Counted from the first letter of the stretch, positions 23,127 through 26,452 are shown. The stretch: DNA of 64,000 nucleotides from an uncultured Gemmatimonadota bacterium (GCA_951812955.1 OX638340.1:3456001-3520000); one strand, 5' to 3'. Numbers and translations: made by a program. Notes: generated by a model from the letters alone, not told the origin.

Positions 23127-24599
23127 ATGCATTATTTCATAGTAGTACTGATTGCGTTCGCTCTCAGTATGTATGGATGCGAAGGTAAGACAGGTCCGGC
23201 GGGTCCTAGCGGCTCGGCGGGTACCGCGGGTCCGGCAGGTCCGGCGGGCCCGCAGGGCTCGACTGGTCCGGCAGGCCCGGCAGGTGCTGACGGCGCTGAT
23301 GGCGCGACTGGTCCGGCAGGTGCTGACGGCGCTGATGGCGCGACTGGTCCGGCAGGTCCGGCAGGCGCTGATGGCGCTGACGGTGCTGATGGCGCGACTG
23401 GTCCGGCAGGCCCGGCAGGTGCTGACGGTGCTGATGGTGCTGATGGCGCTGACGGTGCTGACGGTGCTGATGGCGCGACTGGTCCGGCAGGTCCGGCAGG
23501 TCCTCAAGGCCCGGCTGGTATCCCGGACACGGGTGGTATTGATCCCATCGAACTGGCTCAGGCGCACCACATCGCCTTCGTGATAGGTGATGCGGATGCT
23601 GACATGGCTCCCTCTTCAGTCATTTTGAGGGTAGGCGAAGAAACTATGGTCATCGCGGCTGCCGGTGCGCAGAGCGGCAGGAAGCTTCCAAGCGTTTCAG
23701 CTACTGTTACTATGGCGATCACCGATGACGATGACGAAGCCATCACGCTGGAAGATGGCGTGCTCACCGCCGTAGGGGCTGGAACAGCCGAGATCACGGC
23801 TGAGTCGGCAATCGCCGGTATCGCCGGTAAGCTCACCGTCACGGTTACCAAGCCCATCGATGAGATCGTTTTCGATGCGTCCAGTGATCTTAACTTGGCC
23901 GCAGGCGAGTCGACTGGTGAAATAACTGCCACGGCCCATGATGAAGATGGCGAAGTAATTATGCCGCGTTCTGACTGGTCCTGGGCGAGTTCCGACGGGT
24001 CCGTTGCCTCTGTCGCGCAAAAGAAGGATGCCGACAATAAGTTGGTGGATGGCGGCAGAATCGCCACGATAACCGGCAAGGGTTCTGGTGACGCCGATAT
24101 TACGGCGACGGTCGAAGGCGTAAGTGGCAGTATCGCCGTGAACGTCACAGGCCAGAGCGTCACGAGAGTTATCGATCCCAGTTCCTCAAGCGAAGGCAAC
24201 GTATTTGTATGGGATATAGGGTTGGAAACGCCGGGATGGACAGATGCTGGCGCACCGGAAGATGGCACCGAATTTACCGTCAATCTACGTGACAGAGTTT
24301 CCAACAGCCTGATCGATAATTGGACATTGTCGGTTACGCCGACAAGTGCGGCTGCAGGAACTGCCGCCACTGAAGAAGATGCTCAAGTTGATCCAGTACT
24401 CGGCGCGGTAATGGATCCCGCCGATGGAGCAGCAACCACTGGTGCCATTGAGGTGACGATTGCGCCTCATACTGATGGTGTTACCGATGGGATTACTGTT
24501 GGCACGTATCATACTTTTGTTTCCCTGACGTCTACGGGAGCGAGAGAGGCGCGTCTACAGTTTACCATCAGTGTCATAGACTCGACGCCAGACGAATAG
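23127..24599 (+). CDS. collagen-like (Gly-X-Y) repeat lipoprotein with C-terminal Big_2-like Ig domains
   Basis: Start at [21 protein letters not shown] (lipobox); the track ORF starts earlier. ~110 uninterrupted GXY triplets ([19 protein letters not shown]...). Followed by Big_2-like segments ([20 protein letters not shown]...LTVTVT). Confidence 0.8.
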
Positions 24600-24773
24600 T
24601 TAACGTCGGAATAATCCGGACTCGCAATAAGGGTCTGGAAAGCATCCAGTGATCGGTGAGTGGTTGTGCCTGCCTAAGGATATGGCCACTCACCAGAATA
24701 AAAGGAACTGTTCCCGAGACTCTTTTATTAGCAGTATCCAAATACAGAATACACCGCTTAACCGTGTATCTTC

Positions 24774-24826
24774 CCGTCCGTCCTTAGTAGGAGCTTCAGC
24801 GACCGAACAGGGCGGACGGTTTTTTT
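24774..24826 (+). terminator. rho-independent terminator-like hairpin + T7
   Basis: CCGTCCGTCC (24774-83) pairs with GGGCGGACGG (24810-19) with one G.U, followed by TTTTTTT. It lies ~175 nt downstream of the collagen-like gene stop. Confidence 0.5.
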
Positions 24827-25249
24827 GTTCCTTTTTGCACATTGAGTTTATTGTGCGCTACAGGTCCAAAGGATATTTCGAATAAAAACGTCGTCTAGCC
24901 GATACGATTGACATGCTGCCTGTAAAATCCAATTTAAAACTAGTTTTCAGAAGCTAGACCAGCATCACCATGCCGACAGATAACTTGACGAATTGAGCGT
25001 TATACAAAAAAACATAGATTTTACTCGAGATAATCAACATGACTTCGACTAATAAATAAGAACATACTTCATGGCGTAGCAGAACTGTAAGAGAAGACGT
25101 TTGCTAGAATCCCGAAACCGTCGTGAATAGCGAGATCTAATTTACATCGCTGTATACGCTAAACGCTTCCGTAAACCTAAACCCAATATCGCTTCATGTC
25201 TTTATGAGCCACGCAACGGGAAATCGTTCCCGCTGCCTGCTTGACTAAG

Positions 25250-25290
25250 CCCCGGATGATAGATACTTTCTTCATCGCGGGGTTTCTTTT
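25250..25290 (+). terminator. rho-independent terminator-like hairpin + T-rich tail
   Basis: CCCCGGATGA ... TCATCGCGGGG then TTTCTTTT. It is preceded by a second hairpin, CGGGAA ATCG TTCCCG (25216-31). No annotated plus-strand gene ends here. Confidence 0.4.
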
Positions 25291-25417
25291 ACCGGGTACG
25301 TCCAACTCGGCGCAGCATCACGTCCGGTTTATAAAAACCTAAAGATATCCGTTTGCATCAATAGAACACCGGAATACGTTCACTAAACTGCCCGCGACAA
25401 TTCCCGGAGGCCCAATC

Positions 25418-26452
25418 GTGTTACGCCATGCTACCAGTCTGTTACTCTTTGTTGTAGTTCTTGCCTGCGAAGGTCCGGCGGGTCCGGCGGGTCCGGCGGG
25501 TCCGGCTGGTTCGGCGGGAGTGGCAGGCGCCGCGGGTCCCTCGGGAGTCCAGGGCCCGGCCGGGCCGCAGGGTGAATCAGGGGAAACGCTGGACTGGTCG
25601 GACGTCATTGCAGACCAGAATCTGGGTAACGCGGTCTATGCGATCGGCGTGCAGGTACAGGGGAAGAATTACATACTGGGGACGGGTTTCGTCGCGCACT
25701 TCTATAATGCGATCTGGACCAACGTGCACATCGTGCAGGCTGTGCTCATCACGACCCAGTTCATAGAGGATCTCAACCCCCGACCCTTTGCCGTCAAATC
25801 GGGCACCGAGGTCGGCGGCGCTGATACGTACTGGCTGAATACTTTCTGGGTTCATCCCGATTACGACGGTACGGCCGGATCCCCCGATGTAGCCCTGCTT
25901 TCCATAGACGCAAATATCACGAACCTTCCGTTCTTCCTGCCCAGGGACCAGGCCCAGGGACTGCAGGTGGGTCAGCCGATCGGCACGATTGGTTTTCTCG
26001 AAGAACTTTCGGGTGAGTCCGTCACAGTACCCATCGCCACGTTCAGAGACGGAACGATCAGCGCGCTGAGGCCCTTTGAAGACGAGATCCCGACGCCCGA
26101 GAACAGCCGGGTCATTCAGCATAATCTGGACGTGACCGGCCTTACGAGCGGCAGTCTCATTTTCGATCACCAGGGATATATCGTCGGCATGAACTTCGCC
26201 GGTTACTTTCGCGTCGCATATGACCAGCGTACCGGAGAACCCACGCGCATCCCTACGGAAAACCCCGGATACGGCATTCGCGTCGACGAACTGTGGCGTC
26301 TTTACGACGTGGCAAGAGGGCGCAGGGTCGTACCTGATGTGGCGGGGAGACGCACGGACGTTCCGATCGTAATGCAGCCCGAGCAGGACTATCCGAACGA
26401 ATCCTATATGCCCTTCCCCGACAACTGGAACGGGGAGACGAGTTTGCCGTAG
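25418..26452 (+). CDS. lipoprotein: short collagen-like Gly-X-Y segment fused to a trypsin-like (S1/Trypsin_2) serine-peptidase-like domain
   Basis: [49 protein letters not shown], then a region with trypsin-like landmarks (WTNVHIVQA His region, PDVALL Asp, GLTSGSLIF Ser region). The CEG + GPAGPAG N-terminus is shared with ORF 23127..24599. Confidence 0.6.
   Translation: MLRHATSLLLFVVVLACEGPAGPAGPAGPAGSAGVAGAAGPSGVQGPAGPQGESGETLDWSDVIADQNLGNAVYAIGVQVQGKNYILGTGFVAHFYNAIWTNVHIVQAVLITTQFIEDLNPRPFAVKSGTEVGGADTYWLNTFWVHPDYDGTAGSPDVALLSIDANITNLPFFLPRDQAQGLQVGQPIGTIGFLEELSGESVTVPIATFRDGTISALRPFEDEIPTPENSRVIQHNLDVTGLTSGSLIFDHQGYIVGMNFAGYFRVAYDQRTGEPTRIPTENPGYGIRVDELWRLYDVARGRRVVPDVAGRRTDVPIVMQPEQDYPNESYMPFPDNWNGETSLP

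Follow-up and report, generated by a model that had tools for sequence, protein, structure and literature searches.

Bacterial collagen-like proteins are known mainly as adhesins of pathogens that are anchored by an LPXTG motif or to the exosporium. In Scl1 and Scl2, BclA and Lcl, an uninterrupted Gly-X-Y stalk without hydroxyproline holds a globular head off the cell, and the number of triplets varies between strains or species. The present analysis concerns a stretch of 64,000 nucleotides from an uncultured Gemmatimonadota bacterium (GCA_951812955.1 OX638340.1:3456001-3520000; henceforth the window), in which two neighbouring genes, here called P1 and P2, encode proteins of this general design. 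As a preliminary description of the sequence had proposed, both are collagen-like lipoproteins by prediction and carry unrelated C-terminal heads (Ig-like in P1, trypsin-like in P2). On balance, we consider them to be probably separately transcribed, lipid-anchored and collagen-stalked envelope proteins, P1 being a variable surface adhesin or coat protein and P2 a stalked protease.

Compared with the described systems, P1 and P2 differ in both ends of the molecule. Their anchor would be an N-terminal lipobox Cys beside the tract instead of the C-terminal LPXTG or exosporium attachment of Scl and BclA, their heads are C-terminal and bear no relation to either the V domain of Scl or the C1q-like domain of BclA, and no LPXTG motif is present in either sequence. 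The NCBIfam models NF038329, NF038330 and NF046116 (Scl1/Scl2/Lcl) reached 22-68 bits against cut-offs of 325-500 and aligned to the Gly-X-Y tract only; judged by sequence, P1 and P2 are bacterial collagen-like proteins outside the Scl, Lcl and BclA families. Bucl8 of Burkholderia is likewise a diderm envelope protein with a collagen-like extension of few triplet types, but is an efflux-pump outer-membrane channel with a C-terminal extracellular tract (PMC7682875), whereas P1 and P2 are without OEP domains and their tract begins two residues after the predicted lipid anchor.

Both open reading frames (ORFs) were called where the preliminary description had placed them. In both products, a signal peptide ends in a lipobox Cys, after which come Glu-Gly and a run of Gly-X-Y triplets. 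The gene order lptD, orf22517, P1, gap, P2 is also found in four other genomes (L001-L004), which are metagenome-assembled genomes (MAGs) labelled Gemmatimonadota or Latescibacterota. The start ATG of P1 at 23127 is common to nearly all homologues and is preceded, at a distance of 5 nt, by a Shine-Dalgarno-like GGGAGA (23116-23121); P2 starts with GTG at 25418, with CGGAGG 5 nt upstream. Lipoboxes were assigned by eye and by regular expression, for which a hydrophobic signal ending in [LVI..][ASTG..][GAS]-Cys at residues 15-35 and Lys or Arg in the n-region were required. The P2 signal (MLRH...VVLAC17) has all of these features and fits the PROSITE PS51257 lipobox pattern, and Cys17 is invariant in the alignment A1. 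The P1 signal ends in ...LSMYGC18, which matches the lipobox, and Cys-Glu is invariant in the full-length members of its family (21/21). In the diderm host, of the Gemmatimonadota/Latescibacterota group, signal peptidase II would cut both precursors and leave an acylated Cys, with the Gly-X-Y tract beginning after one Glu. Three chains, kept in register through their lipid anchors and the head, would then wind into a collagen triple helix that serves as a rigid spacer on the membrane.

The P1 tract comprises 38 triplets after Cys-Glu (39 consecutive units if G-C-E is counted), i.e., 114 residues or 342 nt with no interruption; the approximately 110 uninterrupted triplets given in the preliminary description arose because residues were counted as triplets. 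It is made up of 13 GPA, 13 GAD, 4 GAT and few other triplets. The Pfam Collagen model (PF01391), for which a scan had been proposed, matched P1 (E 9e-17, 61 bits, cut-off 27.2) and stayed just under the gathering score in P2 (25.0 against 27.2 bits), where 13 clean triplets are directly visible; most P2 homologues carry a precomputed PF01391 match. The P1 tract DNA has a GC content of 73% and is repetitive, with Tandem Repeats Finder arrays of period 9, 27, 36, and 54. The repetitive DNA quoted earlier is present and includes an exact period-36 repeat of 81 nt, the signature of a recent in-frame duplication.

A triple helix is expected because the strict Gly periodicity is held in about 130 homologues, X and Y vary, and insertions and deletions are of whole triplets. 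At 0.286 nm per residue, the P1 stalk would, if triple-helical, be about 33 nm long and the P2 stalk about 11 nm. P1 would bear its three Ig-like domains at the stalk tip, and P2 would most likely be an envelope protease made of three chains, its heads kept at a constant height above the membrane. HtrA-type protease domains are trimers and therefore fit a three-chain P2 stalk. Alternatively, the tracts could be flexible low-complexity linkers that tie monomeric heads to the membrane, with no triple helix. In favour of this, triplets without Pro (GAD and GAT) make up nearly half of those in P1, hydroxyproline is not known to occur in bacteria, and no trimerisation domain was found. Both tracts also had a predicted local distance difference test (pLDDT) score below 50 in the AlphaFold2 (AF2) monomer models, although this is expected of a single chain. 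Linkers would, however, leave Gly unbroken at every third position over 38 + 13 triplets and its retention in the homologues unaccounted for, along with the whole-triplet indels and the trimeric nature of HtrA-type heads. In Bucl8, a triple helix has been proven for the Pro-free (GAS)n tract, which comprises between 6 and 38 repeats depending on the allele (PMC7682875). Linkers of this kind are therefore regarded as distinctly improbable. As true triple helices, the stalks of P1 and P2 would provide a simple natural system for collagen folding without a nucleation domain and would reveal how stalk length places an enzyme or adhesin relative to the membrane.

The P1 head was modelled with AF2 (32 homologues) at a pLDDT of about 90 over residues 140-490, and the predicted secondary structure delimits three beta-sandwich domains at about residues 146-241, 246-341, and 347-484. 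The top Foldseek matches were the S-layer proteins SbsC, SbsB, EA1 and Sap, the Big_2 domains of the Leptospira protein LigA, and cadherins. No significant Pfam match was obtained for the C-terminal 350 residues; Big_2 (PF02368) gave no match in P1 at E up to 0.1 and was matched in just 2 of the 32 homologues (about 7e-4), and Big_1 remained below its cut-off (E 0.016, 15.7 bits against 34.9). Of the Big_2-type Ig-like domains proposed earlier, the Ig-like fold is thus borne out by the structure model and the Big_2 assignment is unsupported by sequence. Homologue searches returned 55 sequences for the head, and only 7 short fragments when the 53-residue N-terminal module was used as the query.

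Collagen-like repeats are common in phage tail fibres, and P1 and P2 gave many PHROG tail-fibre matches, down to E 6e-31, as would be expected if they were prophage genes or derived from phage tail fibres. Nearly all of these matches, however, lie in the Gly-X-Y tract or start from it, and the heads alone matched weakly (an Ig-domain structural family at 2.4e-6 and an unlabelled family at 7.5e-4). Searching the protease part against 50,697 phage records with tblastn yielded no match. The lipobox signals, the synteny beside lptD in five genomes and the lack of phage genes nearby point the same way. A phage tail-fibre origin was rejected on account of the tract-only matches, the missing phage match for the protease part and the chromosomal context, and we consider it exceedingly improbable.

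The trypsin-like assignment of P2 proved correct. Trypsin_2 (PF13365) was matched over the full profile by residues 88-258 (E 1.9e-11, 45.3 bits, cut-off 27.6), and catalytic His, Asp and Ser are all present in canonical order within the motifs TNVHIV (H104), SPDVALL (D157), and GLTSGS (S244). In hhalign, these residues aligned with H96, D126 and S201 of Escherichia coli DegS. The AF2 model had a pLDDT of about 80 over the domain and of 31-43 over the C-terminal tail, which is predicted to be disordered. Foldseek matched the domain to Deg5, Deg1, DegP, DegQ, MucD, and DegS (best E 3.5e-10), and a sequence search of the PDB with the protease part gave marginal matches only (E at least 0.1). P2 therefore resembles the HtrA family (DegP, DegQ, DegS, Deg1, Deg5, MucD), trimer-built envelope proteases, in fold and catalytic motifs. 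It differs from them in the absence of a PDZ domain (no match at E up to 0.1, only 43 residues following the protease domain), in the conserved 43-residue tail, in its predicted lipid anchoring via a collagen stalk and in the loss of the catalytic His in 15% of the family sequences. P2 is thus HtrA-like by fold and not a canonical HtrA. The tail carries the motif DYPxxxYxPFPxNWNGETxLP; in the alignment A1, F333, P334 and W337 never vary, and conservation reaches at least 90% at several further positions. The tail occupies the place that PDZ domains have in HtrA proteases.

In overall design, with a collagen stalk, a trypsin-fold protease and a recognition head, the collectin/ficolin-MASP and C1q-C1r/C1s complexes of animals offer an analogy. 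There, the stalk and the S1A protease are separate chains, whereas P2 would be one lipid-anchored bacterial chain, and no homology is implied. No description of a lipoprotein-collagen-protease protein, or of collagen-like lipoproteins in these phyla, was found in the papers searched; the single-chain combination of stalk and serine protease in P2 is a layout we did not find described.

In a large protein collection, 320 P2 homologues were found, the best 120 of which were examined. Nearly all full-length sequences among these have a lipobox, Cys-[EKDA], 12-19 triplets and Trypsin_2, their source MAGs being labelled Gemmatimonadetes, Latescibacterota or Zixibacteria. When the protease part alone served as the query, an exhaustive search returned 599 cluster representatives at E up to 1e-3, 55 of them at E up to 1e-30. 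The closest full-length relatives are stalked, and most of the distant ones are either lipoproteins that have no Gly-X-Y tract or longer proteins of several domains. The protease is therefore an older, widespread lipoprotein family, and one subclade gained a collagen spacer. Within the family, Asp157 (121/121) and Ser244 (119/119) are invariant and the catalytic His is kept in 103 of 121 sequences; in the other 18, all close orthologues of the window P2 (which itself retains the His), it is replaced by Arg (11), Thr (4) or Ser, Gln and Lys (1 each). Such a loss of His beside invariant Asp157 and Ser244 is an odd pattern for a simple loss of activity.

Sequence conservation along P1 is uneven. 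Among orthologues at the same locus, the 5' leader, compared over 107 nt, and the first 81 nt of the coding sequence have 88-96% nucleotide identity (L001-L003), the signal peptide and lipobox are 95-100% identical, and an element 3' of the gene (described below) has 90-95% nucleotide identity (L001-L004); the head in between shares merely 31-46% of its amino acids across genomes, against 72-93% identity for the flanking genes (LptD, orf22517, P2). A check of tract length had been proposed; between species, the stalk does vary, from 22 to 43 triplets across orthologues of the P1 family and from 23 to 38 at the same locus in different genomes. P1 thus presents itself as a mosaic, fast-evolving gene. 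Its most likely role is that of an adhesin or coat protein on the cell surface, subject to diversifying selection, because the predicted stalk is too long for the periplasm, head and stalk length are hypervariable, the gene is multi-copy elsewhere, and its neighbours encode surface proteins.

These features also bear on the possibility that P1 and P2 face the periplasm, as outer-membrane-anchored trimeric rods that would act as spacers in analogy to Braun's lipoprotein Lpp, with P2 as a quality-control protease positioned at a defined distance from the outer membrane. The P2-family stalk is narrowly distributed (median 14 triplets, standard deviation 2.6, mostly 12-19), and the corresponding lengths of about 10-16 nm are on the scale of the periplasm, as known from Lpp and periplasm dimensions. 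In addition, the P2 domain resembles periplasmic HtrA proteases, the locus adjoins lptD, and the remoter P2 homologues are solitary, with housekeeping genes around them, e.g., behind cytochrome oxidase genes. A P1 stalk of about 33 nm with three Ig domains would, however, exceed the typical width of the periplasm, its hypervariable length and head are unlike a molecular ruler, P2 has no PDZ domain, and the default Lol destination is uninformative on surface exposure in this phylum. An Lpp-like role is viable for P2 and poor for P1; as an account of both proteins, we judge it unlikely.

Additional members of the P1 family suggest a possible role in surface variation. Five or six paralogues form tandem arrays in L005 (5762-15621 and 18017-18448) and L006 (1036-10452); all begin with MHYLIIAVLAFGLSLMGCE, have 30-34 triplets, and fall into at least two head classes. 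A gene of the Phage_integrase family (tyrosine recombinase) adjoins the L005 array at 3837-4775 (-). In other genomes, paralogues also occur as inverted or convergent pairs. L003 contains an inverted duplication with arms at 4737-5766 and 8470-9499 (1,030 nt, 97% complementarity), between which lies a degraded P2 paralogue (6779-7693) in which signal peptide and stalk are missing and Arg stands in place of the catalytic His. The C-terminal thirds of the two L003 P1 copies differ, and their inverted arrangement could permit inversion or gene conversion. Vsa/Vsp of Mycoplasma and Vsp/Vlp of Borrelia share with the P1 family an invariant lipoprotein signal and 5' region, size-variable repeats, a divergent C-terminus and an occurrence in several copies, in tandem or inverted, in some genomes. 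The sequences are unrelated, and neither switching or inversion nor an alternative gene arrangement was observed for the P1 family. With its conserved ends, its hypervariable middle and its multi-copy arrays in MAGs labelled Gemmatimonadota or Latescibacterota, the family is a candidate surface-variation system of poorly studied bacteria.

Taken further, the lipobox Cys-Glu plus Gly-X-Y unit might be a portable, self-registering stalk mounted on unrelated heads, and the conserved ends of P1 might be recombination handles for cassette variation. With no trimerisation domain needed, triple-helix formation would be nucleated by the three acylated N-termini, similar to synthetic lipidated collagen peptides, and the 5' module and 3' element would let P1 paralogues swap heads and stalk lengths in bacteria that may be host-associated. 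This extension is speculative and more probably wrong than right by a wide measure; the conserved ends and variable middle of the P1 family, together with the 3' element, are nevertheless what seems most worth following up. A single N-terminal module common to P1 and P2 had been proposed in the preliminary description, and it stands as a shared architecture but not as a recently shared segment: the signal peptides are unrelated, and the 73% similarity of the DNA over 74 nt is explained by GPA codons. A common origin of the two modules is plausible, because P2-family paralogues start with C-E-G-K-P-G-P-T-G-P-A-G-S, very close to the start of P1.

Several points weigh against the interpretation of P1 as a variable surface protein and of P2 as a stalked protease. 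The n-region of the P1 signal peptide contains no Lys or Arg, none being found among the first 7 residues. We infer the triple helix from the make-up of the tracts, the 13 GAD and 4 GAT triplets of P1 contain no imino acids, and a dedicated trimerisation domain was identified in neither P1 nor P2. Surface exposure, as opposed to the periplasm, is likewise deduced from stalk length, variability and neighbouring genes only. The replacement of the catalytic His suggests that catalysis may be dispensable in the P2 orthologous group. Finally, P1 is present only once in the window, and the ORFs scanned there include no recombinase.

Separate transcription is suggested by the gap between the genes, which was described earlier as AT-rich with two terminator-like hairpins. 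It is indeed AT-rich (818 bp, GC 0.445 against 0.576 for the window) and contains no convincing ORF; both hairpins fold far better than shuffled controls and are followed by a T-run, and a simple terminator scan detected neither. The first belongs to the 3' element of P1-family genes, which consists of a small hairpin (24749-24769), a 10-bp GC stem (24774-24783/24810-24819) closing a conserved 26-nt loop (UUAGUAGGAGCUUCAGCGACCGAACA, containing AGGAGC; consensus UUAGUAGGAGCUUYAGCGACCGAACA), and U7, with a folding z-score of -3.2. Copies are located in L001 (9035-9130), L002 (7031-7119), L003 (6213-6297 and about 7780-7831 (-)), L004 (about 1400-1490), and L007-L010. In a metagenome scan, the element was found only directly 3' of P1-family genes (L007-L010), convergent pairs included; it is absent from the integrase-adjacent L005 array and from the L006 array. 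Rfam returned nothing at gathering score in the window (in the gap, only a chance-level PK-repZ with E 0.31), and the window has no tRNA genes. The element probably serves as an intrinsic terminator and has a further role besides, the latter being suspected because the loop is far more conserved than termination alone requires. The terminator loop might bind a protein or RNA, a small RNA might be derived from the element as part of the 3' untranslated region, or the element might act as a recombination handle. An integron attC-like reading was dropped in view of the short perfect GC stem, the large conserved loop and the U-tract, and its absence from the integrase-adjacent array was also counted against it.

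The second hairpin (stem 25250-25282) lies, together with its T-run, 127 nt upstream of P2, has a z-score of -3.7 for 25190-25300, and shows just short, weaker similarities in L003 and L004. Neither an ORF nor a known RNA precedes it, and the hairpin might form part of a P2 5' leader. In L002 (7249-8859) and L004 (1727-3235), P1 and P2 are separated by a DUF4403 gene of about 500 aa, which is absent from L001 and from the gap in the window, where short conserved blocks (e.g., 25017-25067) match sequence downstream of the DUF4403 gene in relatives.

It follows from the terminator after P1, the gap insertions elsewhere and the solitary distant P2 homologues that P1 and P2 are probably neighbours and neither an operon nor an obligate pair, so that a functional unit is unlikely. 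A functional pair, in which P2 would, for example, process or release P1, could be read from the P1-gap-P2 adjacency kept in the window and L001-L004 and from the common Cys-Glu-Gly-collagen design. Set against this are the terminator-like element and the 818 bp that separate the genes, the DUF4403 gene (L002/L004) or extra paralogues (L003) in the gap, P1-family arrays without P2 and P2 homologues without P1 in other genomes, and the missing catalytic His of some P2 orthologues; such a pairing is very unlikely. The features of the locus are compiled in Table 1.

Table 1 Features of the P1-P2 locus and its surroundings, in window coordinates
Feature	Position	Strand	Support
orf22517, small secreted, OMP-like ORF (putative), 167 aa	22517..23020	+	Conservation, sequence inspection
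Conserved 5' leader of P1	23021..23126	+	Nucleotide identity L001-L003
P1, collagen-stalked lipoprotein (predicted) with Ig-like head, 490 aa	23127..24599	+	ORF, head homologues, Pfam, AF2
P1 signal peptide and lipobox, Cys18	23127..23180	+	Family alignment
P1 collagen-like stalk, 38 Gly-X-Y triplets	23184..23525	+	Direct triplet count
Exact period-36 tandem repeat within P1 stalk, 81 nt	23277..23357	+	12-residue unit twice plus extension
P1 head, three beta-sandwich Ig-like domains (predicted)	23562..24578	+	AF2 model, Foldseek
Conserved 3' element of P1-family genes, ~95 nt	24741..24835	+	Nucleotide identity, folding
Second hairpin, CCCCGGATGA...TCATCGCGGGG then UUUCUUUU	25250..25291	+	Folding, sequence
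P2, collagen-stalked lipoprotein (predicted) with HtrA-like serine protease head, 344 aa	25418..26452	+	ORF, homologues, synteny
P2 signal peptide and lipobox, MLRHATSLLLFVVVLA-C17 then E	25418..25468	+	Alignment A1, pattern fit
P2 collagen-like stalk, 13 triplets	25472..25588	+	Direct triplet count
P2 protease domain, Trypsin_2, HtrA-like fold (predicted)	25589..26320	+	Pfam, AF2, Foldseek, hhalign
P2 catalytic codons	His104 25727-25729 (CAC), Asp157 25886-25888, Ser244 26147-26149	+	Alignment
P2 C-terminal tail, residues 302-344	26321..26449	+	Alignment A1, column counts
Large surface-type genes of the window	4168-5343, 6894-11750, 11907-13514, 26693-30154, 34537-41769, 41799-43454, 46815-52364, 52382-54145

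Public gene calls often cut or split the N-terminus of P1-family proteins, and databases therefore under-report this architecture. The database protein P0121, of 339 aa, matches the P1 head with 100% identity and begins past the stalk (window 23583-24599), and intact ORFs of 472-483 aa in L005 (e.g., 8057-9345 and 14366-15621) were called publicly as pairs of 77-80 and 339-340 residues. About half of the P1-family database entries are without the lipobox and collagen part, and entries for homologues of P1 and P2 bear generic names only. The miscalls probably arise because GC-rich Gly-X-Y DNA is open in several frames, as on the minus strand at 23112-23570. This ORF and those at 23558-24370 and 25577-26476 on the same strand were dismissed as shadow frames of GC-rich coding DNA; Gly-X-Y-like runs at 40511-40771 (-) are antisense to the leucine-rich-repeat gene at 34537-41769.

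Upstream of P1, orf22517 encodes a small protein with a signal peptide (...AYAQ) and the C-terminal sequence ...LPLGF. Homologues with 78-99% amino acid identity lie directly upstream of a P1-family gene in L001, L002, L003, L007, and L009, and about 106 nt always separate the gene from the lptD-linked P1-family gene downstream. No Pfam or NCBIfam match was found for it. The end LPLGF resembles the beta-barrel signal of outer-membrane proteins (OMPs), which suggests an outer-membrane location, and orf22517 may be co-transcribed with P1 or be its partner. Kinship to the other OMP_b-brl protein of the window and to the small ORFs upstream of distant P2 homologues was considered and rejected, as the sequences are unrelated.

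Genes for large surface-type proteins are dense in the window and include six for proteins with Big_2 and leucine-rich repeats, one of them of 2,410 aa, and one for a 1,849-aa CARDB/Big protein with a metallopeptidase-like part. Immediately downstream of P2 lies a gene for a Calx-beta protein of 1,153 aa, which has a weak match to an autotransporter beta-domain. Eukaryotic-like proteins similar to this set have been reported from symbionts of sponges and corals. The region is flanked by paralogous hybrid sensors (GAF-PAS-HisKA-HATPase-receiver-Trans_reg_C) at 14414-16807 and 30764-33259 (+), and in L002 one hybrid sensor homologue directly follows P2.

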